DNA of 64,000 nucleotides from a bacterium (GCA_021787535.1 JAJYLR010000001.1:83648-147647); one strand, 5' to 3'; shown: positions 5,649-33,947, numbered from the stretch's first letter. Translations and numbers: made by a program. Notes: generated from the letters alone by a model not told the origin.

Positions 5649-5671
5649 AAGCTAAACAGCCAAACAAATTA

Positions 5672-6369: not shown

Positions 6370-6675
6370 TGGAATTTCACCAGTTGGCTATGATAAGGTT
6401 CTGGCCGTTTGAATCACCATTGGACTAATCCAGATGGCTATCTGGCCCTGACAACTCTCCTGCCCGAGAGTACAAGGATTATACTATATTTAAGCCATTT
6501 CCTCAACCCTGATTTGTAACTCGAATATAAAGAAGAGTTATCCTGAAATTTCTCATTATTTTTGTAACCTAGCTTTAAATAAGTTTTGAAGAGACGAACA
6601 AAATAAAACTCCCAAAACGGGAGTTTATTTGAAACTTGTTTAAAGATTGGTGGCAAATGCACCATATAACCATAG

Positions 6676-7443: not shown

Positions 7444-7584
7444 TGGTTTAATTGTTCTTTCAAAAATGGATATATTAGCTTATACAATTCTGCCAATCCC
7501 TTCCTGCACCTTTCTTGTATGGGTAGAGGTAAAAGAATTAAGATGTTTTGAACTTGAAAATTGCAAATTTTTGTCGCAGCAAGA

Positions 7585-10422
7585 TTACTTTGGGAGGAGC
7601 TCTTCTTCGTCTTTTTCGGTCAGCTCGCCAAGCTCCGGATTGCCTTTACTAACAATGGATTTAATCTCTTTAACTTCTTGTTGGACGGCTTTCTTTTCTT
7701 TGATTTGGTTGATTTTAGCCGCGTATCTTTTCCTGGACTCTCTGATCACGGCTTGGGCGGTCTTCGGATCCGCCTTAACCTTGAAATCGTAAGAGCCGGC
7801 CAGAAAACTGTCTTCGGCTTTTCCGACTGCGACCTTCATATAGAAGCGGTATAAGGGGAGATTTGCGATTTCATATTTTGAAACTTCCGGGGAAAAGATG
7901 GGCAGAATAAATTGTTCGTCTTCCGGATTGGCTGTCCTAAAACAGATGACCGTGCCGACATTGGCTAAAATCACTTTAACGATATCCCTGTTCTCTATTT
8001 GCGAGACAGACTGGTGAGCCATAACAACTGAGAGCCGGTATTTGCGGGCTTCTGAGACCAGCTCGGCAAAAGTATTGGTGGCGAAGTTCTGAAACTCATC
8101 GACATATAAAAAGAAGTCTTTTCTTTTTTCTTCGCTGGTTCGGGCTCTTTTTAAAGCGGCCAATTGAATCTTGGCAATGACAAGGGAGCCGAAGAAACTG
8201 GACTCGTCTTCGCCGATTTTGCCTTTTGACAGATCGCAGAGCAAAATCTTTCCCGAATCCATCGCTTCTTCAAAGTCCAGCTTTGAATGAACTTGAGTTA
8301 AGATATTGTAATTGATCGGAGAAGCAAGCAGGCCGCCGATTTTATTGGTAATCGGCGAAATCACCGAGTTTCGCTGCAATGCTCCCAGTTTCTCGAACTC
8401 GTAAGTCCAGTAATCCTTTAAGACCTCATTATCCAGGTTTTTCACGATCTCTTTTCGGTATCTGGTTTTGGTGAGCAGATCAAGGACCGTCTTTAAAGTC
8501 GGGTCTTTTGTTTCAAGAGCCGTCAGGATTGTATTTCTAAGGACGTACTCCATTCTCGGCCCGAAGAACTTGGCGTCGTAGAACTTTTGGATAATGGAGA
8601 TAATCGAGCTTGTGACCAAAGACTTTTGTTTTTGGAGCTGGCTTAGAGTCTGCTCTTTGTCTTTTGGCAGTTCCAGTAAGTTTAAAGCTATCGGGTAAGC
8701 GTCATCATCGGGGGCAAACCAAATGACATCCTTGGCTCTTTCTTTGGGAATCGCTTTTAATATTTCCTCGACCAGCTGTCCGTGAGGGTCAATGACGCCG
8801 ACGCCCTTGCCGGCTTTAATGTCATTTAAGATCATATTGGCCAATAGGGTGGTTTTGCCCGAGCCGGTCGCCCCCAGAATATATGTGTGCCTTCTTCTTT
8901 CTTCCAGCGTTTGGCCGATGGGCGTCTCTGTCCCGCCGTAAGTGTTTTTGGCAAAAACATTGTCGAACTTGGTGGCGCTTTTCTTGAAGGAAAGCGGAGC
9001 TGAAAGCTCGGAGCTTTTAGCTTTCACTAAATCTTCTGTTCTGGCAAGCGAATGCGGAAAATGATAAAGGCCGGCCAGTTCTGAGACTGAGAGAATCGGG
9101 TTTGAGAATGCCGCGAGCCGGCGGCCGGCAAGGTTGCTTAGCGTCCATTGATTGAATAAGGGAAGGCTTAGCTTCTTGAGTAATGACTGATGAGCATTAG
9201 ACAGGCCATGGAGGGAAGCTAAAAAGCCTGAAGTCCTAAGATCATAGTCAGCGCTTGAATCCGTTTTGGCAAACATCCTGATTGAAGTTTCAAACATGGG
9301 CTGATCTGTTTTGCCTTTGACCTTATCCCTTAACTCCTGCTCGATAGGATTTGCCACATTCTCATTTGAATGCGGTTTGTTAATGACATAAAGATCGGTC
9401 GGACCGTCGTTAAGAATATAGGTAGCCATTTTCAGCGGAATCTTAATGAACCAGGCCAAAGCCAGGAGCAAGGCTTTGGCTATCGCAAGCGGAGTAGCCA
9501 AGGCTTTTTCAAAAGGTGTTTTAAAAAGTTCTCCGCTTAACGGTTCGTTTCTAAGCATGGACACGTTCAGCTTTCTAATTCGCTTTAATACTCCCTTGTG
9601 AGTTGACTTTTTGACCGGAGTAACCACTATCTGAAAAACCATCAGCTCGCCGTCTTTTAATTTGGTCATCTGGCCTGTAAGATAGGCGATTTGATCATGC
9701 TCTTTTAAGCTGCCTTGCTCTTCCAGGGGCAAAGCAAAGTCGCTTGCCAGCTTTAGCTCGGTTACGCCTTCTTTAGTTTGGCTTTTTTTGCCGGCAATGT
9801 CATTTGATATATAGTCCTTCACCTTGGTCACCTTCAGCCCCGGCATAAACGACAGCAGGGATTTTTCAATAATCGGCGCTTCTTTTTTTGATATTCCCAA
9901 GATATATCTGATCCCTTCTTCTTTTGAGGCCGTTATCTCAAACGCATATCTTTTCTTGTACCTCAGAAGTTTATATACCCCTCTATTTTGCCTGGCCAGC
10001 GAATGCAGATGGGTGAAGAGCTGTTTGGTGGCGTAAGGTGTTTTGTCGGTACGGGCCGGAAAGACCAGTTCAAGATAGGTGAGCGGTTCTTTTTTGGACA
10101 GCCGGTTTAACAAGTATCTTTTCAGGAGATATATGCCGATTAGGATGAGGATGATTATGAGGATAAAGCCCGGGAATGAAAAGTGAGAGGCAGAGAGATT
10201 ATTTAGCCATTCAAAAAAGGCCAGCTTCCAGCTGATCGGCCCGGGAATGATAACGATTGTATAGAGAAAAGCTTTTTGCAGGCCGGTCAGTGGAGCGTTA
10301 TGCTTAAGAGCAAGCAAAAGACCGGTTGCAAACTTGCCGTCGTGAGGCGAAGGCGTATAGCCGGTTAGCATTTTGTTCTGAGACGAAGAAAGAAGGATTT
10401 GAGTTAAAGAAAAAGATTTCAT
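7585..10422 (-). CDS. VirD4/TraD/TraG-type coupling-protein-like P-loop ATPase (FtsK/HerA superfamily) with an N-terminal membrane anchor
   Basis: Two N-terminal TM segments are followed by an unusual ~400-aa spacer. Then come Walker A ILGATGSGKTTLL, Walker B FFLYVDEFQNF and the MAHQSVSQI motif characteristic of type IV coupling proteins. Confidence 0.6.
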   Translation of the reverse strand: MKSFSLTQILLSSSQNKMLTGYTPSPHDGKFATGLLLALKHNAPLTGLQKAFLYTIVIIPGPISWKLAFFEWLNNLSASHFSFPGFILIIILILIGIYLLKRYLLNRLSKKEPLTYLELVFPARTDKTPYATKQLFTHLHSLARQNRGVYKLLRYKKRYAFEITASKEEGIRYILGISKKEAPIIEKSLLSFMPGLKVTKVKDYISNDIAGKKSQTKEGVTELKLASDFALPLEEQGSLKEHDQIAYLTGQMTKLKDGELMVFQIVVTPVKKSTHKGVLKRIRKLNVSMLRNEPLSGELFKTPFEKALATPLAIAKALLLALAWFIKIPLKMATYILNDGPTDLYVINKPHSNENVANPIEQELRDKVKGKTDQPMFETSIRMFAKTDSSADYDLRTSGFLASLHGLSNAHQSLLKKLSLPLFNQWTLSNLAGRRLAAFSNPILSVSELAGLYHFPHSLARTEDLVKAKSSELSAPLSFKKSATKFDNVFAKNTYGGTETPIGQTLEERRRHTYILGATGSGKTTLLANMILNDIKAGKGVGVIDPHGQLVEEILKAIPKERAKDVIWFAPDDDAYPIALNLLELPKDKEQTLSQLQKQKSLVTSSIISIIQKFYDAKFFGPRMEYVLRNTILTALETKDPTLKTVLDLLTKTRYRKEIVKNLDNEVLKDYWTYEFEKLGALQRNSVISPITNKIGGLLASPINYNILTQVHSKLDFEEAMDSGKILLCDLSKGKIGEDESSFFGSLVIAKIQLAALKRARTSEEKRKDFFLYVDEFQNFATNTFAELVSEARKYRLSVVMAHQSVSQIENRDIVKVILANVGTVICFRTANPEDEQFILPIFSPEVSKYEIANLPLYRFYMKVAVGKAEDSFLAGSYDFKVKADPKTAQAVIRESRKRYAAKINQIKEKKAVQQEVKEIKSIVSKGNPELGELTEKDEEELLPK

Positions 10423-13605: not shown

Positions 13606-14289
13606 ATGGAAGATTTACAGGTACAATTGAAGTCGGGAGAAATTGATCCTAAGCTTCCCGCCAGGCTACAGATCAGCATGTTTAATTCTTATTGTTCTGG
13701 TGAGTATCTTTATGCATTATGCCATTGGCTAAAAAACCAAGGTCTTACTTCTGTTGAGTTTCAAGTCGCGGATACTTTGCAAAAACATAATATTTCCTGG
13801 AGAAATAAATGCTCTACAGATCAAGCCTTATCCGACGCGTATAAAACGGGTAACGATTGGTTCAGCGTTAATGCGGCAAGTTTTAAATATTGTTACGAGA
13901 ATTTTTCTTTTTTTTGCATTTCGAGGTGGGAGGACTGGATGAAACATACCGGTTTCTCGGAAGCCAAAGAATCCCTGCAAAAACTGCTTGAAACCGATAA
14001 TGGCTTTAGGGATGCTATTAATCAAGAAATCGAACTTTATTTTGAAAAAACAGGAAGATCTTTGAGTAAAGAAAGAAGAAAAATTTCACAAAACTTCCTC
14101 ATTGAAGAAATGGCAGTATCGGAAATATCTGCAAGGTATTGGCCGGCAAATGAAATATATCCGGGGCCACGATTTATTCCGGAAATATATTTAGAAGAAT
14201 CAAAGATTGGCAAGAACTTCTTTCTGACTAATGCAAGTTTTATTCATGTTGATTATGTATCAAAACAGAGGAAAGAAGTTGAAGTATGA
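13606..14289 (+). CDS. Hypothetical protein (227 aa)
   Basis: ORF with an RBS. Its stop overlaps the rnhA start (ATGA). Confidence 0.4.
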   Translation: MEDLQVQLKSGEIDPKLPARLQISMFNSYCSGEYLYALCHWLKNQGLTSVEFQVADTLQKHNISWRNKCSTDQALSDAYKTGNDWFSVNAASFKYCYENFSFFCISRWEDWMKHTGFSEAKESLQKLLETDNGFRDAINQEIELYFEKTGRSLSKERRKISQNFLIEEMAVSEISARYWPANEIYPGPRFIPEIYLEESKIGKNFFLTNASFIHVDYVSKQRKEVEV

Positions 14290-14717
14290 ATAAGCTAATC
14301 ATTTTTACAGACGGGGGGGCGAGGAACAATCCGGGGCCGGCGGGGATCGGGGTTGTTCTTTATGATGAAAACAAAAAGATACTGGAAACTTACAAAGAGT
14401 ACATCGGCGAGGCGACGAACAATCAGGCGGAATATCGGGCGCTTATTAAGGCGTTGGAATTAGCTCAAAAATATATAAATTCTGGACAAGGCCAGAATGA
14501 CCAGAAGGTTGCAATTGAATGTTTTTTGGACAGTGAACTTGTTGTTAAACAATTAAATAAAGAATACAAGGTCAAAGATCCGGCGATTAAGGAGCTTTAT
14601 AATCAGGTACTAGACCTCTCAATTTTTAAAAGTATTAGCTTCACTCATGTCAGGCGCGAACAGAACAAGCTGGCGGACAAGCTGGTCAATGAGGCGATAG
14701 ATGAAAAGCATCTATAA
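14286..14717 (+). CDS. rnhA: Ribonuclease HI
   Basis: IIFTDGGARNNPGPAGIGVV, TNNQAEYRALIKALE and a C-terminal HVRREQNKLADKL match RNase H type 1 catalytic residues. Confidence 0.8.
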   Translation: MNKLIIFTDGGARNNPGPAGIGVVLYDENKKILETYKEYIGEATNNQAEYRALIKALELAQKYINSGQGQNDQKVAIECFLDSELVVKQLNKEYKVKDPAIKELYNQVLDLSIFKSISFTHVRREQNKLADKLVNEAIDEKHL

Positions 14718-23110: not shown

Positions 23111-23139
23111 TTGTGATGATGATTATGATTATCTATAAT
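23111..23139 (+). promoter_or_regulatory. Sigma70-like promoter (TTGTGA-17-TATAAT) for the first giant surface-protein gene
   Basis: ttgtga at 23111-23116, a 17-nt spacer, tataat at 23134-23139, then the ATG at 23163. Confidence 0.5.
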
Positions 23140-23162: not shown

Positions 23163-26100
23163 ATGTACAGTGTGACTAAGGTATCAATTATCAAGCTTTT
23201 TATAGCAGCAGCTATCCTGATTATTGCGGGTTATCTTGCTGTTTATGAACTTACTCTCCACCAGGTGTATCAAAAATACAAAGCACAGCAAACTTCAGGC
23301 GGAAACATTCCTGTTTCAAATACTGACCTCTCCAAAGATTACGTTTCTCTAAAGGGCGGCAACCCTCAAGCCGGCGCTATCAATGTTAGCGGTGATATTG
23401 CCGGCAATGATGTCCAGGGGCAAACCATTACCTCAACCGTTCAGAATGGAACATCTCCGCTTAATGTCACTTCATCAACCTTAGTTAACAACCTTAATGC
23501 TGACATGGTGGACGGCAAGCACGCAGATGAATTAACCAAAACAACCGTAAACAATATTACAAACACTACAACAGGTGAATCTATCCAGCCGGGAACAACA
23601 GGCCAATACTACCGCGGCGATAAATCCTGGCAGACCTTAAATTCTTCTGCTGTCGGTCTTGGAAATGTCGAGAATACAGCTCTTTCGACATGGACGGGAT
23701 CAAACCAAGTTGCCATTTTAGGAACCGTCACTTCCGGAACCTGGAACGCTGGTGCAATCAACGCGGCCGGTTCTATTACCGGTACAGCTCTCCAAGGCAC
23801 ATCTCTAAACCTTGGCTCTGGCACTATTATCGCAGGAACTATCAATGGCGCAACTATCTCGGGAGGCACATTATCCGGCGGCAATATTTCAGGCGGAACA
23901 GTGCAGGGCGGAACTCTTTCTTCAACTGCCGTCAATGGCGTAACTACAGCAAATATCTTAATCAACACCGGCTCATACTCTGACCCGTCATGGCTACAAG
24001 GTCTTGCCGGTTCAAAGATTACCGGAGATATATCAGGAAATGCCAGTGGCCTTACCGGCACACCAAATATCACCGTCGGTACCATTAGCTCCGGAAATAT
24101 TACATCTTCAGGGACGCTTAGTATTACAGGAACAGGGAATTCATCGGTAGCTGGGAATTTAGGTGTTAACAGTTTACTTACGCCGGAAAGTCTTGGGCCT
24201 GAGCTCGATCCAAACCCTACGCTTGATAACAATTGTAACGGCTGGACAATAGGAGGCCCGGATTGGGTATGCCACGGCAACTATTACTCGCATGATTCTT
24301 ACGGAACCAGCTATACTTATTTAACTAATGGGATACCATCTGTAATCGGACAAGTCTATAAGCTGACTTTCACGGTATCCGGCTACTCTGCGGGAAGCTT
24401 CGATTTCTATGTTGCGGGAGATAGAACGCCTACCATAACAGCAAATGGCACTTATACTTTTTATCTTAAAGCGCGCTATGCCAATGATTGGTTCTTTCCA
24501 GAACAAACTGCGAACTCTCTTTTTGCATTAGATAACATCTACCTCGAGGCGCAAAACGCGCTACCCGTATATTCAACAATAACTGCCGGCGATGTAGTAA
24601 CAAGAGGCGGATCAAAAACTGATGTTAGGGCATTTGGCGCAAAATGCGACGGCGTGACGGATGATTCAGCTGCAATTCAAGCAGCTGAAGATAGTCTGCC
24701 TTATAACGGCGGTACGTTATTCTTTCCGGCGGGTACCTGTATTGGTCATTTCACGGTCAAATCCAATGTCCACATCATGGGCAGCGGCATTGAAGCTACT
24801 GTTTTAAAATTGCCCAATGGTGCCAATACTGACGTGATTAATACGCAAGATTTTAATAACCTAACGGGTACTGATAGTCAAAGAGGTGCCTTAAGGGTGA
24901 CTCTTGAAAATATAACTTTAGATGGCAACAAAGGTAACAATTCCAGCGGATATTGTCTCAAAAAGTACGGTGCTCAATGGAATATCCATGATACTGTTTT
25001 CAGAAACGGCGCAAGCGGAGGTATGTATGCAGAATGGGGAACTTATCTGGGCATACCTTATGGCGCTGACTCTATGGAGGATAAATGGAGTAATATCTGG
25101 GTTCATGATAACAATGGCGCTTACGCTATTTGGATGAAAGGACCCCATGATAGCGTAATGACAAACTCGCTAATATATGCAAATGCCGGCAGCGGAATTT
25201 TTATAGATCATTCAGGGAGTACGTTTAATGGCGGGGGATTAACTATCAATGATACGCATATTTGGGGCAACTCCACCACTGGTTATGGCATTCTCTCAGA
25301 TACGGCGCTTCGAATGAACGGAGATATCGTTGAAGGAGAAAGCGGCAGCGGCGGTGTAGGGATTAGGATGTACCAAAATTACGATACAGGTGTCCTTACT
25401 GCTACCAATCTCGAGATTTTTGGCAACGAAACTGGCATATTACTCGATGCAAATACCCAGAGAAACAATATTTCTGGTGTCTATGTGCATGAAAATACAA
25501 ATGGCATTAAGGTTTTAAGCAATGAAAATAACATAACCGGAGCTTTAATTACCTGGCAAACTTCAGGTACGGGCTTAATTATGGGTGACGGAACTCATGT
25601 TGTTTCCAATAACAATATTGAAGGAAAGTTTTATAATAATGCAACCAGCATTAATTGGGGCAATCCTTCAAACACTAACGATTCTATTGATGCTTTGATA
25701 TCGACATCAGGCGGACAAACTGCTCTTTCGGGTAGCCCCTCAAGCACTAACAAGTTAAATATCTTGTCAGCAGGTTCTGGCGCCAATACTTCACTTACCA
25801 ATATTGCCGGTCAATTATCCATTGAGTCCGCCCAAACCTCTGGCAATCTCACCACGATCGCAGCACCCTCTGCCGTAACTGCAACGGGTGACATTGTAGG
25901 CCAGAGAATTGATCTCCGAAGTAACTACACGATTTCTAATCATCAGGTAACAGGATCATGGCTATCTATGCCGAATGTGACAAACTCCAGTGCAACCAGT
26001 GCGTGGTACAATGCATACTATGTTGATGGCGGTTCACTGCAAAATGCCGGTATAGGCAATGATTATTGGACGGGTTTTGGTTACCAAGAACCCAACATTA

Positions 26101-28784
26101 CAACCACATCATCGGGTTCAATAACATCAGTCGGCATAGAACTTTATAAACCGAGCACGATCAGCGGAGCCAATGCTCATAACTATAGTATTATAGTTGA
26201 TCCCGGCGCGGGCAATGTCGGCATCGGTACCACAGCGCCAGCTAGTCTTTTAACTGTAAATGCTCCGGTGACGACTGATAGTTCCACGGTAACTGCCATG
26301 ATTACCTCGGCTAATGCCGCCAACAAAGGGCTGGTAGTCCAAGGTTATACTTCTCAAACAGCTGATTTAATCCAGGCACAGAGTTCGCTTGGAGCGGTGC
26401 TTTTTAGTGTTGATAATTCAGGCAACATTACAACTAGCGGTAATACCGCCAAAACAATCGCAGAGGCGCGCAATACTTCAAATGCTGCGGGAAACAATCT
26501 GACGGTGCAGAGCGGCGGGGCATACGCTGGCGGTACCGATCTAAATGGCGGAAACCTGATAGCTGCCTCGGGTATTTCCACGGGACTCGGGTCGTCTAAC
26601 ATCTATCTTCAGACAGCTTCGGGTACAGGGTCTATTTCGAGCGTTAATGCAACTCCGACGACAAGCGGCAGCGGCTATAGTTTGAATGATATTTTGACTA
26701 TTTCGGAAGGTTCCGGGGGACAGGTTAAAGTTACAGGCGTCAGCAGCGGCCAGGTTACTGCTGTGACTTTGTATGCCGCTGGCATTGGCTATACAACAGG
26801 GACAGGCAAGGTGACTACCGGAGGTACGGGGACGGGTTGTTCGATTAATATTACAGGTGTGTCGAGCGGGACAACCGATCAAACGCCGAGCACAAAGATG
26901 ACCATTCTAGGAAACGGGAATGTCGGCATAGGCACCACGGCTCCCGGTGCCAAACTGACAATCCAGGGGAATGCTGTCAACAACGGCGCTGCTCCAATTA
27001 TGGAAATTCAAGACAGCACCGGAGCCGAACTCTTCAGAATTAATGCAAATGTAGTAGACAACCTCTTCATCGGCAACTCAGCTGGTAATGCCATTCAGAC
27101 GCCGGGTGTTTCCACTCAAGGGCTCTATGATACATTTATCGGCACTTATTCCGGTATGCATAATACCACAGGACACTACAACACCTTTATCGGTAACAGA
27201 TCGGGATCGGAGGATACAACCGGCGATCACAACACCGCGATCGGGATGCAAAGCGGGTACAATATTACCACCGGACAATATAATACTTATCTAGGAATAA
27301 CTGCCGGTCAGGATGGGACGACTGCCAATCACAATGTTGCTATAGGCGACTATGCGGGTATAGGCAATGTCAACGGCGATAAAAATATCTTTGTCGGTAG
27401 TTACTCTGGCTACAACCGGCTGATGGGTATCGGGGAGATATTACAAGGTTACAATGCCGGCAGTTCCGGCAAGTCCGGCGGGTACAACATTAGTCTAGGA
27501 GTAAACTCTCTGTATAATGATTATGATGGTATCGGCAATGTTTCCTTAGGCACTTATTCGCTGTTTAGCAATAAATCCTCGACAGATAAGTCGATTACGG
27601 GCTTTGCCAACTATTCAGGCAGTGAAAAGGTCACTACCTTAAACCCTCATGGGCTGGCAGTCGGCGACTCTGTATATATTACCTTTAACTCAATGGCATC
27701 AACTGAACTGACGCATAGTGCGCTCTATACGGTACAAAGTGTGATAGATGCCAATGACTTTACTATTGCCAGAACATACGACTCTGCCAATGACCTGAAG
27801 GGCTACTGGGAAAGAGGTGCCACACTTTCAGATAACGGCAGCGGCAAGGTGAGAGTAACTTCAAACAACCATGGCGTGCCAAACGGAGGCCTTGTTATCC
27901 TTGGAGGAACGGGAGCAAATTCATCTTATGATGGTATGCATACAGCTACGCTTATAGATGCAAACCATTTCGATCTGACGGATTTAACTTATTCATCCAG
28001 CTATACAACGGGCTGGTTTGAATACGAGCCGCAATCAGGGAATAACACCGCTGTCGGAAGCTATGCCGGCTATGCCAATACAACCGGCTATAATAATACT
28101 TTTCTTGGCTACAATGCCGGCAATGCCGGCACGACAGGCACGCTGCAGAATGCTGCGGCTATCGGATATAACGCCCAAGTTACGGAAAGCAATGCTATAG
28201 TCTTGGGCGGTACGGGCTCAAGTGCGGTCAATGTTGGCATTGGCACAACTGCCCCGGGTGCTAACCTGGAGATTGATAGCAATGCTGCAGGTACTATCGT
28301 TCAGATCATTAAGGCGTATTCCGGTCAGACCGCAGATCTTTTGGAGATCCAGGGCTCTGATACCAGCGTTTTAGCGAAGATTGATGCATCCGGCAACCTG
28401 ACGGCAAAGGCCGCATCATTTACCGGAACACTCACCGTGACAGGTCACTTTAAATCAACCCAAACAACAGCTCCGACGATAGGTACGCCGACAAGCTGCG
28501 GTACGACACCGACTGCTGCAGTGACTGCCGGTTCAACCGACTCAGCTGGATCATTAACCATCACTGCCGGTACTGGTGCTCCTGGTAACTGCGCTGCTCA
28601 AATAACCTTTAATACTGCCTATGGCGCTGCCCCTAAGTCAATTATTCTGACGCCAAGTACTGCAACCGGTCCGGCTAAACAAGCATATATTTCTGCTAGT
28701 TCTGCTACCACATTCACAGTTACATTTGGAACGGCTCCGACTGCTTCTGAAGCTAATACTTTCTACTACTGGGTTGTAGAATGA
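23163..28784 (+). CDS. Giant surface protein (1873 aa) with an N-terminal signal-anchor, a pectate-lyase-superfamily right-handed beta-helix (tailspike/depolymerase-like) and tail-fibre-like NTxxG repeats
   Basis: VRAFGAKCDGVTDDSAAIQAAEDSLPYNGGTLFFPAGTC is the hallmark N-terminus of the pectate-lyase-3 beta-helix family. Repeated xNTxxGxxAG units lie between aa ~1300 and 1480. The N-terminus is hydrophobic: IIKLFIAAAILIIAGYLAVY. Confidence 0.8.
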   Translation: MYSVTKVSIIKLFIAAAILIIAGYLAVYELTLHQVYQKYKAQQTSGGNIPVSNTDLSKDYVSLKGGNPQAGAINVSGDIAGNDVQGQTITSTVQNGTSPLNVTSSTLVNNLNADMVDGKHADELTKTTVNNITNTTTGESIQPGTTGQYYRGDKSWQTLNSSAVGLGNVENTALSTWTGSNQVAILGTVTSGTWNAGAINAAGSITGTALQGTSLNLGSGTIIAGTINGATISGGTLSGGNISGGTVQGGTLSSTAVNGVTTANILINTGSYSDPSWLQGLAGSKITGDISGNASGLTGTPNITVGTISSGNITSSGTLSITGTGNSSVAGNLGVNSLLTPESLGPELDPNPTLDNNCNGWTIGGPDWVCHGNYYSHDSYGTSYTYLTNGIPSVIGQVYKLTFTVSGYSAGSFDFYVAGDRTPTITANGTYTFYLKARYANDWFFPEQTANSLFALDNIYLEAQNALPVYSTITAGDVVTRGGSKTDVRAFGAKCDGVTDDSAAIQAAEDSLPYNGGTLFFPAGTCIGHFTVKSNVHIMGSGIEATVLKLPNGANTDVINTQDFNNLTGTDSQRGALRVTLENITLDGNKGNNSSGYCLKKYGAQWNIHDTVFRNGASGGMYAEWGTYLGIPYGADSMEDKWSNIWVHDNNGAYAIWMKGPHDSVMTNSLIYANAGSGIFIDHSGSTFNGGGLTINDTHIWGNSTTGYGILSDTALRMNGDIVEGESGSGGVGIRMYQNYDTGVLTATNLEIFGNETGILLDANTQRNNISGVYVHENTNGIKVLSNENNITGALITWQTSGTGLIMGDGTHVVSNNNIEGKFYNNATSINWGNPSNTNDSIDALISTSGGQTALSGSPSSTNKLNILSAGSGANTSLTNIAGQLSIESAQTSGNLTTIAAPSAVTATGDIVGQRIDLRSNYTISNHQVTGSWLSMPNVTNSSATSAWYNAYYVDGGSLQNAGIGNDYWTGFGYQEPNITTTSSGSITSVGIELYKPSTISGANAHNYSIIVDPGAGNVGIGTTAPASLLTVNAPVTTDSSTVTAMITSANAANKGLVVQGYTSQTADLIQAQSSLGAVLFSVDNSGNITTSGNTAKTIAEARNTSNAAGNNLTVQSGGAYAGGTDLNGGNLIAASGISTGLGSSNIYLQTASGTGSISSVNATPTTSGSGYSLNDILTISEGSGGQVKVTGVSSGQVTAVTLYAAGIGYTTGTGKVTTGGTGTGCSINITGVSSGTTDQTPSTKMTILGNGNVGIGTTAPGAKLTIQGNAVNNGAAPIMEIQDSTGAELFRINANVVDNLFIGNSAGNAIQTPGVSTQGLYDTFIGTYSGMHNTTGHYNTFIGNRSGSEDTTGDHNTAIGMQSGYNITTGQYNTYLGITAGQDGTTANHNVAIGDYAGIGNVNGDKNIFVGSYSGYNRLMGIGEILQGYNAGSSGKSGGYNISLGVNSLYNDYDGIGNVSLGTYSLFSNKSSTDKSITGFANYSGSEKVTTLNPHGLAVGDSVYITFNSMASTELTHSALYTVQSVIDANDFTIARTYDSANDLKGYWERGATLSDNGSGKVRVTSNNHGVPNGGLVILGGTGANSSYDGMHTATLIDANHFDLTDLTYSSSYTTGWFEYEPQSGNNTAVGSYAGYANTTGYNNTFLGYNAGNAGTTGTLQNAAAIGYNAQVTESNAIVLGGTGSSAVNVGIGTTAPGANLEIDSNAAGTIVQIIKAYSGQTADLLEIQGSDTSVLAKIDASGNLTAKAASFTGTLTVTGHFKSTQTTAPTIGTPTSCGTTPTAAVTAGSTDSAGSLTITAGTGAPGNCAAQITFNTAYGAAPKSIILTPSTATGPAKQAYISASSATTFTVTFGTAPTASEANTFYYWVVE
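23403..23800. repeat. 398-bp tract 100% identical to 29102-29499 in the downstream paralog (recent gene conversion or duplication)
   Basis: Base-by-base comparison of the two listings across all lines in this interval. Flanks diverge immediately at 23402/29101 and at 23801/29500. Confidence 0.9.
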
Positions 28785-28861
28785 TTTTGGTGTTGACGTG
28801 GGAAAAGATTATGTTTACACTGAGGTTCTATACTTTTCTAGTATGTGAAGAGATTTAATGA

Positions 28862-31800
28862 ATGTATAACCCAACCAAGTCAACCTTAATTAAAATCTTC
28901 TCTTTAATATCTATTTTAATTTTATGCGGTTTTTTGCTTGTTTACGAACTGACGATTCATGAAGTTAATCAGAAATACAAAAACCAGCAGTCTTCGCAGG
29001 GCAATATTTCGCTTTCAACTTCCGATCTCTCCAAAGATTACGTATCACTCAAGGGCTCAAATCCTCAGTCCGGCAATATCAACCTTGAGGGCAATATCTC
29101 AGGCAATGATGTCCAGGGGCAAACCATTACCTCAACCGTTCAGAATGGAACATCTCCGCTTAATGTCACTTCATCAACCTTAGTTAACAACCTTAATGCT
29201 GACATGGTGGACGGCAAGCACGCAGATGAATTAACCAAAACAACCGTAAACAATATTACAAACACTACAACAGGTGAATCTATCCAGCCGGGAACAACAG
29301 GCCAATACTACCGCGGCGATAAATCCTGGCAGACCTTAAATTCTTCTGCTGTCGGTCTTGGAAATGTCGAGAATACAGCTCTTTCGACATGGACGGGATC
29401 AAACCAAGTTGCCATTTTAGGAACCGTCACTTCCGGAACCTGGAACGCTGGTGCAATCAACGCGGCCGGTTCTATTACCGGTACAGCTCTCCAAGGCACG
29501 TCCTTAAATCTTGGTTCAGGCGCTATCACATCAGGCGCAATTAACGGCCAAACTATTTCTTCCAGCGCTAACTTTACAGGAACTATTACGGCTGGCGGTA
29601 CCATTAACGGAGCTACAATCTCCGGAGGCACACTTTCCGGCGGAAATGTCTCAGGCGGTACTGTCCAGGGTGGAACGCTTTCGTCAACGGCTGTCAACGG
29701 CGTAACTACGGCAAACATTCTAGTCAACACCGGCTCATATTCTGATCCTTCTTGGCTACAAGGTCTTGCCGGTTCAAAGATTACCGGAGATATTCAAGGA
29801 AATGCTAGCGGGTTAACGGGTTCACCTAATATCACGGTTGGTACGATCACTTCCGGCAACATCACATCATCGGGAACACTGGATATTACAGGAACAGGGG
29901 ATTCAACAGTTGGCGGTAATATTTCAGTGAACCCGGACTTTGGCTCTGAGCTAACGACAAATGGAAACTTTAACGGCAGTGCCAACAACTGGCTGGTTTC
30001 CTGCACCGATTATTCCAGCGGTTCCACTGCCTGTAATACGGCTGATACGCCAAACTCAGTTCCGGCATCCGGTTGGTCTTACGGCTCAAACAGTGTTTCT
30101 CATGCTTCTGGAACAAACAACACTGATGCCTTATATCAGGACATTTCAAATACGGCGGGAGAAACATACGGATCAAATATCATTACAGACAGCAACTTTT
30201 CTCTCAATCCTGCAACTAACGGATGGGATTGGATGGATGCCGGCTGGCATTGGGTAAACAACACCGCTATGACTAATGCCGGAGGAGCGTATTTCGGCGA
30301 TGATCTCGGAACAAGCCTTACAGCCGGACTGTACAAAGTTCAATTCTCAACATCGGGAATGCCTGCTGGCGGGCAACTAAAAGTTGCTTTATCCAGTGGA
30401 GGGATAAGTGAAGATGCAGCAGTCGTATCAGGTAACGGCCAACATACTTTCTATTTCACAGTCGGCACCACTCCTGAGACGGGTGGCTGGCCATATTATC
30501 TATATTTTGATTCGACATCGGTTGGCACCACCATTGATAACGTGTCGGCTCAACTGGTTACCGGCGCTCAGTTCGGAGAATCGCAAACTCAGTCATACAA
30601 AGTTAGTTTCGCTGTCTCGGGCATGACAGCCGGATCGCTCTCCGCCAATCTCGGTGGTGTCGGCGGGTCGCCCATTACGGCCAATGGGACCTATACCCAG
30701 TATTTAATTGGCAAGCCCAACGCTAACATCATTTCATTTGTTCCATCACATGATGCTGTCTTTACTCTTTCAAATATTTCCGTTACTCCGGTTCAGAACG
30801 GCACTATTACTGTTCAGGATATCATTACCAAAGGAGGGCCGAAAGTTGACGTCAGAGCTTATGGCGCAAAAGGAGACGGGAAGACCGACAATACGGCGGC
30901 CATCCAGGCGGCGGAAGACAGTCTCCCTGATCAGGGCGGCACTCTTTATTTCCCATCCGGAACATTTCTCGGCCACGTAACCCTAAAGTCAAATGTCCAT
31001 GTTGAAGGTGCCGGTATCAACGCAACCATACTGAAACTTCCGAACGGCGCAAATACGGATGTGATTGCCTCCAAAGATTTCGCCAGCTTGACCGGCAACA
31101 CAACCAACAGAGATGGTGTTAATAGAGTTACACTCGATGACATAACCATCGACGGAAATGCAGGAAACAATACCGCGGGTTACGGTGTCAGAAAATACGG
31201 AGGCCAATGGAATGTTCATGACGTTGTCATTAAAAACTGCGCTCAGGACGGAGTCTATTCTGAGTGGGGTAGCTATGGGGGCGCTCCTCTTGTGGCTGAT
31301 TCAATGGAAGATCATTGGACTAATATTATGCTTACTGTTAATTCCGGCAGCGGTATGACCTGGAACGGCCCTCATGATAGCGTGCTCGACAACTTTATTG
31401 TAAGTAGCAACAGTGGCAATGGGATCAATTTTGAGAATGCATCCGGGGGGGTTGCCAATGGTACCCAGCTGAAGAATTCCCACATTTGGGGCAATTCATC
31501 AACAGGTTATGGTTTGTGGATTAAAACGAGTATAAATCTTGACAATGATATTGTCGAAGGGGCAACCGGTACTGGCGGAATCGGCATTTATGTGGATTCC
31601 GGCGGAGCCATCTTGGCAAACGGCCTCCAAGTCTATGCTTGTGAAACAGGAGTTTACATAAGCGGAGTGTCGCCGGGCGGAAATAATGAGATTACAGGAA
31701 TTACTTTGTCTACTATTACTAAAGCTAATATTGTCATTTATAGCGCTTGGTCCGTCCGAATAACCGGTGCCACAATTTCGATCTCTTCGAATTCTTCAAG

Positions 31801-32731
31801 TGCAGTGGGTATTGATCTGCAAAGCGGAGGAAATGCCTATATAGATAATGCAGTGATCAGTTTAGGACAGAATTCGCATGGCATTAATGTTGGTAGCTCA
31901 GGGTCGGCGTTTACCGGCAGTATGATTTCTGCCAGGATTGTAGGATATACCGGAAGCAGCCCGACCGGAACCATGATCAATTGGGCTAATGCCGGAGATG
32001 CCAACAACAACTTAACAGCCACAGTTTCGACACATACGGGAGAAACCGCTCTTGCAGGCAGTCCCGCAGCAAGTAATGAAATTAATATTTTATCAACAGG
32101 GACTGGGACAAATGCGAATTACAAAAACTTCTCAAGCGCCAATAACGTTGGGGTTGGGGTAATTAATTCTCAAAACAAGCTTAGCGTTAATGCTCCTGTT
32201 ACGGCTGACACGCTGGCAACCACGATAATTACGCCAACTGTGGCTTCGAACAAAGGTTTAGTAGTGCAAGGTTATACTTCGCAAACTGCTGACTTGATCC
32301 AGGCGCAAAGTTCACTAGGAGCCGTGTTATTTAAGATTGACAACTCGGGTAACTTGGCGGCTAAAAGCGCAACCTTCACCGGCACATTGACTATGAACGG
32401 TCATATTATTACCGGAAACTCAATCGGTTCGACGACGATTGCCGCCGGAGCTAATGCAGGAACGGGAGCCACGGCAACAATCAGTGGAAACGACACTTCG
32501 GGGACTATCACAGTGACGACTGGAACCGGCCCGGCTGCGGGAACTTTGGCAACTATTACATTTGCCGGTACCTATGGCTCGGCACCAAGAGTGGTTTTGA
32601 CACCAACCGGCGCAAATGGCGCAACTCTGCAATATTATGTCGGATCCACAACCACAACATTTACCTTATCTAGCGGTACGGCACCGACGGCTTCAACCGC
32701 CTACACCTACAATTATCAGGTAATGCAGTAG
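28862..32731 (+). CDS. Giant surface protein paralog (1289 aa) with the same N-terminal anchor, a shared conserved ~300-aa N-domain, a pectate-lyase-type beta-helix and a shared C-terminal domain
   Basis: VRAYGAKGDGKTDNTAAIQAAEDSLPDQGGTLYFPSGTF. The N- and C-terminal regions align with the upstream gene. The genes are in tandem with a 77-bp spacer. Confidence 0.8.
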   Translation: MYNPTKSTLIKIFSLISILILCGFLLVYELTIHEVNQKYKNQQSSQGNISLSTSDLSKDYVSLKGSNPQSGNINLEGNISGNDVQGQTITSTVQNGTSPLNVTSSTLVNNLNADMVDGKHADELTKTTVNNITNTTTGESIQPGTTGQYYRGDKSWQTLNSSAVGLGNVENTALSTWTGSNQVAILGTVTSGTWNAGAINAAGSITGTALQGTSLNLGSGAITSGAINGQTISSSANFTGTITAGGTINGATISGGTLSGGNVSGGTVQGGTLSSTAVNGVTTANILVNTGSYSDPSWLQGLAGSKITGDIQGNASGLTGSPNITVGTITSGNITSSGTLDITGTGDSTVGGNISVNPDFGSELTTNGNFNGSANNWLVSCTDYSSGSTACNTADTPNSVPASGWSYGSNSVSHASGTNNTDALYQDISNTAGETYGSNIITDSNFSLNPATNGWDWMDAGWHWVNNTAMTNAGGAYFGDDLGTSLTAGLYKVQFSTSGMPAGGQLKVALSSGGISEDAAVVSGNGQHTFYFTVGTTPETGGWPYYLYFDSTSVGTTIDNVSAQLVTGAQFGESQTQSYKVSFAVSGMTAGSLSANLGGVGGSPITANGTYTQYLIGKPNANIISFVPSHDAVFTLSNISVTPVQNGTITVQDIITKGGPKVDVRAYGAKGDGKTDNTAAIQAAEDSLPDQGGTLYFPSGTFLGHVTLKSNVHVEGAGINATILKLPNGANTDVIASKDFASLTGNTTNRDGVNRVTLDDITIDGNAGNNTAGYGVRKYGGQWNVHDVVIKNCAQDGVYSEWGSYGGAPLVADSMEDHWTNIMLTVNSGSGMTWNGPHDSVLDNFIVSSNSGNGINFENASGGVANGTQLKNSHIWGNSSTGYGLWIKTSINLDNDIVEGATGTGGIGIYVDSGGAILANGLQVYACETGVYISGVSPGGNNEITGITLSTITKANIVIYSAWSVRITGATISISSNSSSAVGIDLQSGGNAYIDNAVISLGQNSHGINVGSSGSAFTGSMISARIVGYTGSSPTGTMINWANAGDANNNLTATVSTHTGETALAGSPAASNEINILSTGTGTNANYKNFSSANNVGVGVINSQNKLSVNAPVTADTLATTIITPTVASNKGLVVQGYTSQTADLIQAQSSLGAVLFKIDNSGNLAAKSATFTGTLTMNGHIITGNSIGSTTIAAGANAGTGATATISGNDTSGTITVTTGTGPAAGTLATITFAGTYGSAPRVVLTPTGANGATLQYYVGSTTTTFTLSSGTAPTASTAYTYNYQVMQ

Positions 32732-32732
32732 G

Positions 32733-32772
32733 CAAGCAACCGCTTGCTTGCTTTTACAAGGACAGTCCTTGT
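32733..32772 (+). terminator. Tandem hairpins after the giant gene: gcaagcaa-ccgc-ttgcttgc followed by TTTT, then the 17-nt perfect palindrome acaaggacagtccttgt
   Basis: Inverted repeats read directly from the sequence. The second palindrome is a member of a recurring gene-end palindrome family (also at 33875, 58092 and 61281). Confidence 0.55.
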
Positions 32773-32780
32773 TAAAATTC

Positions 32781-32849
32781 TGTATAGATGCTTGAGTTTT
32801 TGTATAGATATTTGACATTTTGTATAGTTTTTGATAGTATATCTATACA
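32781..32849 (+). promoter_or_regulatory. Promoter (TTGACA-17-TAGTAT) carrying three direct TGTATAG(A) repeats and an inverted CTATACA. A candidate operator array for the downstream MerR-type regulator.
   Basis: tgtataga at 32781 and 32801, tgtatag at 32821 inside the spacer, ctataca at 32843. ttgaca at 32812-32817 and tagtat at 32835-32840. The ATG at 32852 implies a leaderless or very short leader. Confidence 0.5.
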
Positions 32850-32851
32850 AT

Positions 32852-33574
32852 ATGAAAAATAACAAAAAATTGATGCCGATCGGAGAAGCAGCTGATTTCC
32901 TGGAGGTATCGGTTATGACCCTCAGGCGTTGGGATGCTTCCGGAAAACTGCCGGCGCTCAAAAAGCCCAGCGGCCACCGATATTATGAACGCGAAGCGCT
33001 TGAGCGGTTTCGCGAGGATATTTTTGGCTTGGCGAGAACATGGGCGGGCAGCGAGACAGCCCCCGATATTCCAAAAGATTACTACTGTGAAACTCAGGAT
33101 CGCTTTCGCGCTCGGCTTGAACATATGGCAATACTTGCCAGCCAAAAATCCGGGGTATCCGAAGCCGTCCCGATTTTAACAGCTGTGGCGGGAGAAATCG
33201 GCAACAATTCCTTTGATCACAACTTGGGAAACTGGCCTGACGTTCCCGGCGTATTTTTTGTCTATGACACCAATAAGCGTATAATTGTGTTGGCGGATCG
33301 CGGAGTGGGCATTAAGGGAACACTGTCAAGGGTTCGTCCAAATTTAAAAGATGACATTGACGCTCTGACTGTCGCGATGACTGAGCGCATATCGGGGAGA
33401 TCGCCGGAACAAAGGGGAAACGGTTTAAAGTTTGTAGTGAGTGTTACAGCGGAAAATTTGATTAAGGTAACTTTACAATCAGGAATAGCAGTCGCCACTA
33501 TTGAAAGAGGCAAGGCGCACATCTCTCTGGCTGATCGCAATATTCGCGGAGTATTAACTAAGGTGGAGTATTAA
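32852..33574 (+). CDS. MerR-family HTH fused to a GHKL-type ATPase/serine-kinase-like domain (anti-sigma-factor-like). The ORF-track start at 32831 is a TTG; the ATG at 32852 is preferred.
   Basis: The HTH PIGEAADFLEVSVMTLRRWDASGKLPALKKPSGHRYY fits the MerR pattern. The N-box EIGNNSFDH, G1 DRGVGI and G2 GNGLKFV resemble SpoIIAB/RsbW-type GHKL motifs. Confidence 0.55.
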   Translation: MKNNKKLMPIGEAADFLEVSVMTLRRWDASGKLPALKKPSGHRYYEREALERFREDIFGLARTWAGSETAPDIPKDYYCETQDRFRARLEHMAILASQKSGVSEAVPILTAVAGEIGNNSFDHNLGNWPDVPGVFFVYDTNKRIIVLADRGVGIKGTLSRVRPNLKDDIDALTVAMTERISGRSPEQRGNGLKFVVSVTAENLIKVTLQSGIAVATIERGKAHISLADRNIRGVLTKVEY

Positions 33575-33576
33575 CG

Positions 33577-33840
33577 ATGAAAATTGAACTTAAAAAATTC
33601 GGATTGGTTTTGACCTCTAGGCCGGCAGGCAAGGAAGCATTTGCGGCCATCCGGCCAACTTTAGATCTTAACGCTGATAAGGTAGAAGTTGATTTTAGCG
33701 GAATAATCTCTCTGTCCCCATCATGGGCCGATGAGTTTTTTAAGGGTTTGGAAAGTTTGTATGGAGATCGTGTAATCTATCTTCCGAGTGATAATCCGTC
33801 CGTAAAGGCCACTCTCAAAATCCTTCAAGACGAAGAGTAA
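33577..33840 (+). CDS. STAS-domain protein (anti-sigma-factor-antagonist-like, DUF4325-like). Putative partner of the upstream GHKL protein.
   Basis: 87 aa. VEVDFSGIISLSPSWADEFF resembles the SpoIIAA-type STAS core. Its start is 3 nt after the upstream stop. Confidence 0.5.
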   Translation: MKIELKKFGLVLTSRPAGKEAFAAIRPTLDLNADKVEVDFSGIISLSPSWADEFFKGLESLYGDRVIYLPSDNPSVKATLKILQDEE

Positions 33841-33874
33841 ATATTGTCTCATTTTAAACATCGTGGTTGCTTTT

Positions 33875-33891
33875 ACAAGGACTGTCCTTGT
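33875..33891 (+). terminator. Gene-end palindrome acaaggactgtccttgt (family member, opposite central base)
   Basis: A perfect 17-nt palindrome 35 nt after the STAS stop. Confidence 0.45.
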
Positions 33892-33947
33892 TGAAATTGT
33901 ACACATTGTTTTTGAGGCTTTGTTGTGTTTTGGTATTTTTAGATTCT

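Follow-up and report, generated by a model that had tools for sequence, protein, structure and literature searches.

A 398-nt identical tract in tandem genes for giant modular proteins of predicted surface location suggests recent gene conversion in an uncultured WS5-related bacterium

Two very large genes placed in tandem on a bacterial chromosome share a stretch of 398 nt without a single difference. What produced this identity, and what might the two proteins do for the cell? A preliminary description of the window (the whole stretch of DNA analysed here, 64,000 nt) attributed the tract to ongoing gene conversion and saw in it a classic signature of antigenic or host-range variation, in proteins with a phage tailspike fold. 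We observed that the two ORFs, hereafter g1 and g2, are as claimed (1873 and 1289 aa). They are separated by 77 nt and both are complete, each with its own start codon and promoter-like site, promoter-consensus matches in the region being in no excess over shuffled sequence. The corresponding database entries, P0007 and P0001, each have one member on one contig, and both come from the same 635,771-bp contig. The nearest named relative of the organism is candidate division WS5 (70% enolase identity), and the episymbiotic lifestyle assumed in the preliminary description is conjectural. As already described, both proteins have a predicted anchor at the N-terminus, a conserved N domain, a beta-helix of the PF12708 type and a domain at the C-terminus, and their middles are divergent. 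An overall similarity of about 70-85% between the genes had also been proposed; this holds for the N module (80.9% nt identity by blastn, 74-981 versus 73-1044) and for one 105-nt patch, but the remainder can be aligned as protein only, with 41-42% aa identity and no DNA match in the beta-helix and 36-41% identity in the C module.

Table 1. Positions, in the window, of the two genes, their modules and the shared tract.
Feature	Position (nt)	Strand	Remark
Sigma-70-like promoter match (TTGTGA-17-TATAAT), upstream of g1	23111-23139	+	consensus match only
g1	23163-28784	+	ORF, 1873-aa modular surface protein; identical to database protein P0007
g1 N module (about aa 1-350), tail-fibre-like stalk	23163-24212	+	77% aa identity to g2 aa 1-384
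g1 N-terminal hydrophobic helix (aa 9-27), predicted signal anchor	23187-23243	+	Kyte-Doolittle 2.57
Identical tract, g1 copy (aa 81-213)	23403-23800	+	100% over 398 nt to 29102-29499
g1 right-handed beta-helix (about aa 460-912)	24540-25898	+	PF12708 E 6.6e-15 at aa 487-698; PF13229 E 2.6e-7
g1-specific extension (aa 913-1685), G/T/S/N-rich fibre-like segments and NTxIG-type repeats	25899-28217	+	absent from g2
g1 C module, subtype 'GHFKSTQ' (about aa 1714-1873)	28302-28781	+	aligns with family C modules
Promoter-like match (TTGACG-17-TACACT), in the 77-nt spacer ahead of g2	28793-28821	+	consensus match only
g2	28862-32731	+	ORF, 1289-aa modular surface protein; identical to P0001
g2 N-terminal hydrophobic helix (aa 9-27)	28886-28942	+	Kyte-Doolittle 2.72
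Identical tract, g2 copy (aa 81-213)	29102-29499	+	100% over 398 nt to 23403-23800
g2 beta-sandwich (CBM-like) modules (about aa 434-644)	30161-30793	+	all-beta in AF2 model, pLDDT 60-80
g2 right-handed beta-helix (about aa 659-1079)	30836-32098	+	PF12708 E 4e-13; AF2 pLDDT 80-90
g2 C module (aa 1131-1289), short fibre segment and H-type-lectin-like beta-sandwich	32252-32728	+	

The tract was found exactly where it had been described. It has zero mismatches and is not one base longer at either end; the 240 nt on its 5' side are 63% identical between g1 and g2, and the aligned N module on its 3' side is 73-91% identical per 15-codon window. The chance of 398 matches in a row is about 1e-16 at a background identity of 91% and about 1e-39 at 80%. 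Divergence of the two genes at third codon positions is 0.55 over aa 1-80, 0.008 in the tract and 0.51 over aa 214-368, and therefore selection at the protein level cannot explain the tract. Indeed, over aa 226-315 the proteins are 87-100% identical with only 33-73% identity at third positions, so protein constraint does not yield nucleotide identity. The tract lies in the most conserved, phage-minor-tail-like region of the stalk and holds most of the invariant columns of the family N module; the invariant motifs NADMVDGKHA and RGDKSWQTL of the family alignment fall in this region. The best reading of these data is that the tract is probably the footprint of a recent gene conversion between g1 and g2, and on this point the 398-nt identity and its third-position contrast with the flanks support the preliminary description. 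A very recent RecA-type non-reciprocal exchange between the tandem copies, with either one as donor, would have left the tract, in the part of the stalk where g1 and g2 were already most alike. Other same-genome pairs have no identical tract (L004 gA/gB, 78%; L009/L011 genes, 75%; L007 gA/gB, no DNA match), and conversion is therefore occasional and not a constant feature. Taken alone, such a tract is an ordinary phenomenon.

The chromosomal slot of the pair was compared among relatives for copy number and mosaicism. Upstream are the genes for GAPDH-PGK-TIM-FBA and downstream those for MerR, PRTase, Clp ATPase, PPDK and enolase, a synteny also present in 5 relatives. Between the glycolysis genes and PRTase-Clp-PPDK, relatives have one or two family members: one g2 orthologue each in L001 and L002, a tandem of 1846 + 1187 aa in L004, P0005 (beta-helix) in L008 and P0014 (LVIVD propeller) in L088. 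The g2 orthologues P0002-P0004 are 78-81% identical to g2, and across the family the payload joined to the N and C modules is of beta-helix, LVIVD/SBP56, GDSL or Hint type. A payload swap is seen between L008 and L088: the first 869 nt at the 5' end are 100% identical, the payloads are unrelated and the next 8,499 nt are 97.06% identical. The 5' breakpoint lies within RGDKTWQ, and the 3' one where the C module begins. In addition, synonymous sites of the giant gene have diverged less than those of the neighbouring housekeeping genes, pointing to lateral exchange. Third-position identity between the window and L002 is 0.63 for g2 versus the P0002 gene and 0.39-0.43 for four adjacent glycolysis genes; between L001 and L002 it is 0.54 for the family gene and 0.38-0.39 for glycolysis genes. 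A 506-nt C-module stretch is 90% identical between L001 and L011, which belongs to the same MAG as L002; the housekeeping flanks of L001 and L002 are about 69% identical. As seen in these alignments, there is population-level variation, in which strains and lineages exchange entire payloads, with the conserved N and C modules as crossover points. With payloads replaced in this way, the slot is therefore a hot spot whose occupants differ between genomes.

Could the tract be a product of assembly? An assembler or polisher may have written one consensus into two similar copies, or fused the alleles of two strains into a false tandem. The sequence is known from a single assembly, and contigs L008 and L088 both stop 130-180 nt upstream of the family gene, indicating that assemblers break here; moreover, related strains do carry alleles that are identical at the 5' end but differ in payload, so a strain mixture could supply both genes. 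We nevertheless consider such an artefact unlikely. Each copy is flanked on both sides by unique sequence within the one large contig, and a collapse normally gives a single copy or a contig break, not two embedded identical copies. The divergent 5' 240 nt of g2, and a 77-nt spacer that does not resemble the sequence ahead of g1, are not expected from a false join of alleles of one slot. Homogenisation by software presupposes near-identity, which would itself be a conversion island, and a tandem pair is independently present at the same slot in L004.

Slightly less likely still is a programmed antigenic or host-range variation, in which an expression site and a donor cassette would undergo frequent segmental conversion altering the exposed surface. 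Programmed conversion systems include pilE/pilS, vls (vlsE) and the mycoplasma MgPa repeats. The g1/g2 pair has in common with this scheme tandem paralogues with a conversion tract, presumably surface-exposed proteins with variable middles, and payloads that differ among strains. However, the tract covers the most conserved, membrane-proximal motifs and not variable sequence, neither gene is truncated, each having a start codon and a promoter-like site, and the variable parts are too diverged for homologous exchange (41% aa identity, no DNA match). A tblastn search of the window with both proteins returned only the two full-length genes, with 0 truncated or promoterless copies in these 64 kb, and only two family members are present on the 635-kb contig. 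A cassette of the pilE/pilS, vls or MgPa type was rejected on these grounds, their expression-site/silent-cassette layout being absent here. We also rejected a diversity-generating retroelement target, for which a nearby reverse transcriptase and template and variable repeats differing at adenines would be expected: no reverse transcriptase was found in the scanned ORFs of the window, where the sole RT-like match is an RNase H/RVT_3 protein at 14286-14717, and the tract copies have zero mismatches. Because the tract lies in conserved sequence, the genes are complete, and neither silent cassettes nor a reverse transcriptase were found, the proposal of a classic variation cassette is unsupported. 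Gene conversion between g1 and g2 would homogenise the membrane-proximal stalk and create no diversity. In this respect the pair resembles the concerted evolution of tandem surface paralogues by conversion, with a sharp island of identity between old paralogues.

Concerning the proteins themselves, each contains a single hydrophobic 19-mer (aa 9-27), with Kyte-Doolittle values of at most 1.2 elsewhere, and no AxA-type cleavage site was seen by eye near it in either protein. We therefore predict an uncleaved N-terminal transmembrane anchor with the remainder of the protein outside (type II). The stalk has a pLDDT below 50 in the AF2 model, which is usual when a fibre is predicted as a single chain, and g1 and g2 presumably form trimers. 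Phage likeness of the stalk is limited to a motif of about 35 aa, g1 aa 139-175 matching actinophage minor tail proteins at 70-77%. Further along, the g1 extension gave neither a Pfam nor a PDB sequence match, and the g2 beta-sandwich modules, whose g1 counterpart is shorter, gave no Pfam match.

Both beta-helices exceed the curated gathering threshold of PF12708 (Pect-lyase_RHGA_epim, formerly Pectate_lyase_3), which is 27 bits: g2 reaches 50.1 bits (aa 662-856) and g1 55.9 bits (aa 487-698), the latter match being seen only in a sub-sequence scan, with an empty full-length scan. Foldseek matched the g2 fold to AlgE4/6, GH87, GH28, phi29 gp12 and the Sf6 TSP with E values of 7e-9 to 1e-5, and further to PfbA and the HK620 tailspike; AlgE epimerases, GH87 and GH28 ranked ahead of the tailspikes. 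In sequence and in structure the best matches are the AlgE-type A-module and related PF12708 enzymes (2PYH, 5LW3, 8JA4), which share with the g1/g2 family the N-terminal cap motif DV(R/K)xFGAKGDGxTDDTxAIQxA. Their identity is, however, only 17-18%, and the g1/g2 family has its own invariant set, NTD, GPHD, HIWGN and VEG. The catalytic motif of AlgE-type mannuronan C5-epimerases is YG(F/I)DPH(D/E). When aligned by phmmer, "YGFDPHE" of 8xfq/8ja4 falls on "YGGAPLV" of g2, and g2 was not classed as such an epimerase. Structure prediction gave a confident beta-helix, and residues D663, R665, D672, N731-T732-D733, D839, H874, W876, N878 and E899 of g2, invariant Asp and Glu among them, are conserved in 9 divergent homologues, but none of the catalytic motifs known from characterised enzymes could be recognised in the g1/g2 beta-helix. 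As a member of the pectate-lyase/RHGA/epimerase family, this domain would bind or cleave polysaccharide.

The C module of g1 is 66% identical to that of P0005. Among 64 C-module homologues, 24 match PF09458, all with weak scores, and a profile search with the C module also reaches HPA, weakly (E 0.6); the C modules of g1 and g2 themselves are below every Pfam threshold and gave nothing significant with Foldseek. Peptidase_S74 is present in 3 C-module homologues and absent from g1 and g2. The C-terminal domain may accordingly be described as a divergent H-type-lectin-like sandwich. Its scores against the H-type lectins (Helix pomatia agglutinin, Discoidin I C-domain, SLL-2; PF09458) are all weak and, unlike them, it has a fibre-like segment of about 55 residues ahead of the sandwich. 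The proteins would then be built, in order, of a TM anchor, a G/T/S/N-rich stalk with phage-tail motifs, one or more beta-sandwich modules, the beta-helix and a distal sandwich related to H-type lectins, which would in effect be a tailspike-plus-lectin tethered to the cell's own membrane.

Such an architecture raises the question of a prophage or tailocin remnant, that is, of chromosomal relics of tail fibre or tailspike genes. The minor-tail-protein motifs of the stalk, the resemblance of the beta-helix to tailspikes and phi29 gp12, and that of the C module to the distal domains of tailspikes and pyocin fibres all go in this direction. We find this origin improbable, as the pair has no genes for phage structural proteins, integrase or lysis beside it, the housekeeping neighbourhood is syntenic across several genomes, 42 window ORFs scanned contained no phage family and PHROGs gave 0 families for g1 and g2. 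Moreover, a predicted transmembrane helix takes the place of a virion-attachment domain, and the whole N module occurs in only about 15 cluster representatives, all of them long proteins of cellular type. A phage tailspike or depolymerase receptor-binding protein (RBP) was rejected likewise, with no tail or baseplate genes nearby. Of the tailspike fold proposed earlier, the right-handed beta-helix stands, but as a generic fold closer to AlgE, GH87 and GH28 and in a chromosomal setting. Finally, it is hardly credible that nucleotide-level selection preserves a functional DNA/RNA element or an overlapping frame in the tract: mechanical antisense ORFs do overlap both copies (23609-24280 and 29308-29730), but they are unequal in length and run past the tract, Rfam has 0 matches in the window, and the corresponding DNA of six relatives is only 70-81% identical to the tract, which shows no family-wide constraint on its nucleotides.

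The analysis shows the identity of the tract, its contrast with the flanks at synonymous sites, the domains of the proteins, a shared synteny and the replacement of alleles among relatives. It is quite probable that g1 and g2 encode chromosomal modular surface proteins of a small-genome uncultured bacterium, with a recent conversion between them, at a hot spot of payload swapping; the membrane topology, trimer formation, an enzymatic activity, a ligand and any role in host contact are what we infer beyond this. The proteins most likely attach to, or cut through, a glycan layer on another cell or substrate, and a surface protein acting on polysaccharide, as the preliminary description had it, is the most plausible function in view of the AF2 model, the Foldseek matches and the lectin matches of the C module. 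More tentatively, the slot could be the cellular counterpart of a phage receptor-binding-protein locus in an ultra-small, possibly host-dependent WS5-related bacterium that would tether tailspike-like proteins to its membrane and whose strains would exchange enzymatic payloads (beta-helix, LVIVD propeller, esterase) through homologous recombination in the conserved stalk and lectin modules, a possibility we consider doubtful. If true, the choice of partner cell or glycan would be set by one recombining locus, and the tract would be a snapshot of the recombination machinery at work. How ultra-small uncultured bacteria recognise cells and attach to them is largely unexplained, and this locus is a concrete candidate specificity determinant in a lineage without a cultured member: one chromosomal slot, one or two genes, an interpretable architecture and direct sequence evidence of swaps of the working part. 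The one case studied genetically is that of a saccharibacterium. There, epibiotic growth depends on envelope proteins whose domains bind or degrade glycans (PMC10633639).

Two known systems are close in design. Phage depolymerase RBPs (Sf6, HK620, LKA1 gp49, phi29 gp12) have the same order of anchor, beta-helix and C-terminal beta-sandwich, and like the g1/g2 family they are mosaics formed through recombination at conserved joints (PMC6872550). In contrast to them, g1 and g2 are predicted to be membrane-anchored, reside in a conserved chromosomal slot without phage genes, and are much larger proteins that contain additional beta-sandwich modules and, in the case of g1, the 770-aa extension. 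The mosaic adhesive trimer (MAT) fibres of Bdellovibrio bacteriovorus, a bacterium living on other bacteria, are likewise cell-encoded, phage-tail-fibre-like surface proteins, some of which bind glycans such as GlcNAc (PMC10769870). Both are multi-gene families with an invariant cell-proximal N-terminal part and exchangeable modules, but Bdellovibrio has 21 copies versus two in the g1/g2 genome, and the MAT anchor is a soluble N-terminal domain in place of the predicted TM helix (PMC10769870). MAT fibres combine their invariant N-terminal domain with swappable tips (PMC10769870), whereas in the g1/g2 family the middle payload varies (beta-helix, LVIVD propeller, GDSL, Hint) and the C-terminal tip is conserved. 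The two are linked by no significant match in sequence or fold, the C-terminal domains of Bd2439 being at Foldseek E 0.46 with a probability of 0.11, and the relation would be one of analogy only. The g1/g2 locus would extend the theme of MAT fibres and phage RBPs, in which cells reuse tail-fibre building blocks and conserved joints permit the exchange of modules.

As claimed in the preliminary description, the adjacent paralogous genes for the 1873-aa and 1289-aa proteins (g1 and g2) share a stretch of perfect identity, and its coordinates were exact. Offset by 5699 nt, the two copies agree over exactly 398 nt and differ at the very next base in both directions. This tract codes for residues 81-213 in both proteins. 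With the best flanking window (91% identity) as background, the chance of 398 consecutive matches is ~1e-16. The first 240 nt of the two genes are 63% identical, and the third-codon-position divergence between them is 0.55 upstream of the tract, 0.008 within it and 0.51 downstream, which supports the gene conversion proposed earlier; judged by their sequences, the flanks are an old divergence. The genes had also been described as 70-85% similar outside the tract. This holds for the first 1 kb, at the N-terminal end, and for a single patch of 105 nt, to which DNA-level similarity is confined, but elsewhere they can be aligned as protein only, with 41-42% identity in the beta-helix and 36-41% in the conserved C-terminal domain (C module).

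Positions of the features discussed
Feature	Position	Strand	Remarks
Block of altered composition	2254-10422	minus	GC 0.35-0.41 vs about 0.43-0.48 elsewhere; strand skew reversed
N6/N4 DNA methylase	2910-5075	minus	in block 2254-10422
Replic_Relax protein	6676-7443	minus	in block 2254-10422
VirD4/TraG-like coupling protein	7585-10422	minus	945 aa; in block 2254-10422
ORF with weak cyclodipeptide synthase match	13606-14289		227 aa; PF16715, E 1e-4, below curated cut-off
g1	23163-28784	+	ORF, 1873 aa
Tract, copy in g1	23403-23800
g2	28862-32731	+	ORF, 1289 aa; g1-g2 spacing 77 nt
Tract, copy in g2	29102-29499
42-nt direct repeat	32738-32779		directly past the g2 stop codon
TTTTGTATAGAT/TTGTATAGTT direct repeats	32775-32830		three; promoter region of the MerR-family gene
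MerR-family gene	32831-33574
ORF	33577-33840		87 aa
42-nt direct repeat	33857-33898		past the 87-aa ORF
Further position grouped with the 42-nt repeats	61283-61301
ORF, Rpf-like	56843-58039		DUF348-G5-transglycosylase architecture

At residues 226-315 the two proteins are 87-100% identical, whereas third-position identity is just 33-73%. Since strong protein conservation comes here without nucleotide identity, selection on the protein does not explain the tract. The homologous stretch in six relatives has 70-81% DNA identity to the tract, and the nucleotides themselves are therefore not constrained; as all six fall within this range, they do not tell whether g1 or g2 was the donor. An identity created by the assembly is unlikely, because each copy of the tract is surrounded by unique sequence in a single long contig, g2 has a distinct 5' end and spacer of its own, and a tandem at the same chromosomal site is seen independently in a relative (L004). 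Moreover, homogenisation by a polisher would itself need prior near-identity. The tract is best explained as the footprint of a recent gene conversion. In such a scenario, the tandem genes would very recently have undergone a non-reciprocal homologous exchange, starting from the region of their greatest prior similarity and homogenising the membrane-proximal stalk.

The shared N-terminal membrane anchor announced for these proteins was recovered as one strongly hydrophobic 19-mer (residues 9-27) in both, with nothing comparable elsewhere in either; it is probably an uncleaved signal anchor, the topology being predicted. The conserved N-terminal stalk (N module) reaches to about residue 350 and is rich in G, T, S and N, and its invariant motifs NADMVDGKHA and RGDKSWQTL...GLGNVENT fall within the tract. 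Residues 139-175 are 70-77% identical to 'minor tail proteins' of Arthrobacter, Mycobacterium, Gordonia and Rhodococcus phages. An exhaustive profile search detected N-module motifs in 5,035 cluster representatives, one protein having as many as 32 matched stretches; about 15 of the best 150 of these representatives have the whole module from residue 1. When genome contigs were scanned, the whole N module was present at five loci only, the other matches (Saccharibacteria, Flavobacterium and others) being to a 35-aa motif. A profile scan of metagenome contigs gave motif-level matches only and no further family loci.

A beta-helix of the pectate-lyase-3 type had been proposed for both proteins. 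Indeed, PF12708 matches g2 (E 4e-13) and g1 (E 6.6e-15, scanned as a sub-sequence), and the AF2 model of g2, covering residues 90-1289, contains a helix at about 659-1079 (pLDDT 80-90), preceded by all-beta modules at about 434-644 (pLDDT 60-80) and followed by a C-terminal beta-sandwich. The stalk was modelled at low confidence, as expected of a fibre modelled as a monomer. In a Foldseek search against the PDB, the top ranks for the helix were the A-modules of the mannuronan epimerases AlgE4/AlgE6, a GH87 alpha-1,3-glucanase and GH28, and the next ranks were phi29 gp12, the pneumococcal adhesin PfbA and the Sf6/HK620 tailspikes. Structure prediction together with a search for catalytic Asp/Glu, the check suggested earlier, gave a modelled helix with invariant D and E residues; the catalytic stretch of AlgE has no conserved counterpart in the g2 alignment. 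D663, R665, D672, N731-T732-D733, D839, H874, W876, N878 and E899 are invariant in nine homologues with a mutual identity of 41-80%, which is compatible with a candidate conserved active or binding site. The g1 protein has a specific extension of 773 residues (913-1685) with no Pfam match and no PDB sequence match.

The C module of g2 (residues 1131-1289), modelled with 64 homologues, reached a pLDDT of 95.3, and this model had no significant Foldseek match in the PDB. Its profile retrieves Helix pomatia agglutinin at E 0.6, and PF09458 (H_lectin) is matched by 24 of the 64 homologues (best E 1.5e-4), the window's own copy giving no match. We therefore call the C module H-type-lectin-like and do not assign it to the family. 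Its subtype differs between g1 and g2.

Family homologues have the N and C modules in common and a variable middle, the payload, which is a beta-helix (PF12708/PF13229), an LVIVD/SBP56 beta-propeller or a GDSL esterase. In P0016 (718 aa), a Hint (intein-like) domain (~572-718, from 'CFLKGTKV') is appended straight onto the C-module end '...YHVMQ', a hint that, in some members, the C-terminus may undergo processing or be joined to something. Among relatives, the slot between FBA and PRTase-Clp-PPDK keeps its position and varies in content: two loci (L001, L002) have a single g2 orthologue, the Hainich groundwater contig (L004) has a tandem (1846 + 1187 aa), L008 has P0005 (beta-helix payload) and L088 has P0014 (LVIVD payload). 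Groundwater metagenomes are the source of L004, L007 and L088. The comparison of copy number and mosaicism recommended in the preliminary description was thus informative, with one or two genes per slot and a payload swap between L008 and L088. These two loci come from close strains, since they show 97.06% identity over 8,499 nt downstream, yet their payloads are unrelated. Their first 869 nt, of which 27 nt lie upstream and 842 nt within the gene, match at 100%, where about 26 differences would be expected at a 97% background. The two proteins share 281 identical residues, split within the second copy of the RGDKTWQ motif and rejoin at the C-module start. On this alignment, the difference is an allele replacement with the conserved modules as crossover points. 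Both P0005 (L008 269-1630) and P0014 also contain an internal tandem duplication of the tract-equivalent stalk segment, NA(D/E)MV(D/G)GKHA ... RGDK(S/T)WQ x2, and the L008/L088 junction lies in the second copy.

Between the window and L002, the four glycolysis genes have a third-position identity of 0.39-0.43, compared with 0.63 for g2 and its orthologue; between L001 and L002 the values are 0.38-0.39 for glycolysis genes and 0.54 for the giant gene. Moreover, L001 and L011 share 90% identity over 506 nt of the C module, whereas the housekeeping flanks of L001 and L002 are about 69% identical, L002 and L011 belonging to the same MAG. Hence lineages have exchanged the giant gene since they split. 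We found no identical tract in the other same-genome pairs (L004, L007, L009/L011), so conversion is occasional.

Small mobile-element genes adjoin the slot in relatives (L004 7385-7675 and 20763-21383, L008 4820-5443, L088 4864-5487) and have no counterpart next to it in the window; they are a GIY-YIG endonuclease gene between TIM and FBA, and Y1 (IS200-like) transposase genes directly 3' of the giant gene. In L001 (GCA_027342015.1), a GH114 glycoside hydrolase gene (8847-9899), a further polysaccharide-active gene in the same slot, occupies the position of g1 directly upstream of the g2 orthologue.

From these comparisons, we propose that this is a recombining modular surface-protein locus, whose conserved ends would allow payload exchange. 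This reading replaces the 'antigenic or host-range variation cassettes' put forward before. Programmed antigenic variation is unlikely, because g1 and g2 are both complete, each with promoter-like sites, there are no truncated copies in the window, the 635-kb contig yields two family members only, and the variable parts of g1 and g2 are too divergent for recombination.

The genes are preceded by GAPDH, PGK, TIM and FBA and followed by a MerR-family gene, a phosphoribosyltransferase, a Clp ATPase, PPDK and enolase; farther out lie phosphoglycerate mutase, PFOR subunits, ADP-forming acetyl-CoA synthetase, UvrD and MetRS. The window contains no phage structural genes, reverse transcriptase, tRNA genes or Rfam matches, and neither protein has a match in PHROGs; NCBIfam likewise gave no informative result. 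With such neighbours, the setting is a cellular chromosome, and a prophage remnant is very improbable. Selection on the nucleotides of the tract is the least credible explanation, close to negligible given the divergence of the six relatives and the lack of Rfam matches in the window. A DGR was also considered and rejected, as the window has no reverse transcriptase.

Both proteins are recorded from one contig only, of 635,771 bp. The window enolase has 80-85% identity to its counterparts in relatives, 70% to that of a candidate division WS5 bacterium, the nearest named organism, and ~52% to other named ones; the term candidate division WS5 was not met in the literature searched. The small genome and fermentative gene set are in keeping with a reduced lifestyle that may depend on a host, for which 'episymbiont' is a tentative label. 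The Rpf-like ORF has an architecture typical of Gram-positive-type envelopes, a hint as to the cell-wall type of the organism. The minus-strand block resembles a section of a conjugative or mobilisable element that has integrated.

Just downstream of g2, the 42-nt direct repeats (86% identical, each with the palindrome ACAAGGACWGTCCTTGT) flank the MerR-family gene and a DUF4325/STAS-like gene, a pair missing at the equivalent position in L001. These 42-nt repeats might serve as terminators or operator sites or mark where a small insertion ends, and the TTTTGTATAGAT/TTGTATAGTT repeats may form an operator array.

Domain homology suggests that g1 and g2 encode a cell-tethered spike, polysaccharide-binding or -cleaving and with a lectin-like tip, which would attach to or penetrate a glycan layer. 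There is a precedent in Southlakia epibionticum, where epibiotic growth requires glycan-directed envelope proteins (PMC10633639). In the literature searched, we found no description of this family in Patescibacteria or Saccharibacteria, nor of the predicted architecture, in which a tail-fibre-like stalk on a TM anchor carries an enzymatic payload that can be swapped and a lectin-like tip that is conserved. In its exchange of parts, the locus is like phage receptor-binding proteins, which evolve in a manner resembling payload exchange at the slot (PMC6872550), and like the MAT fibres of Bdellovibrio, which are thought to undergo 'tip swapping' (PMC10769870).
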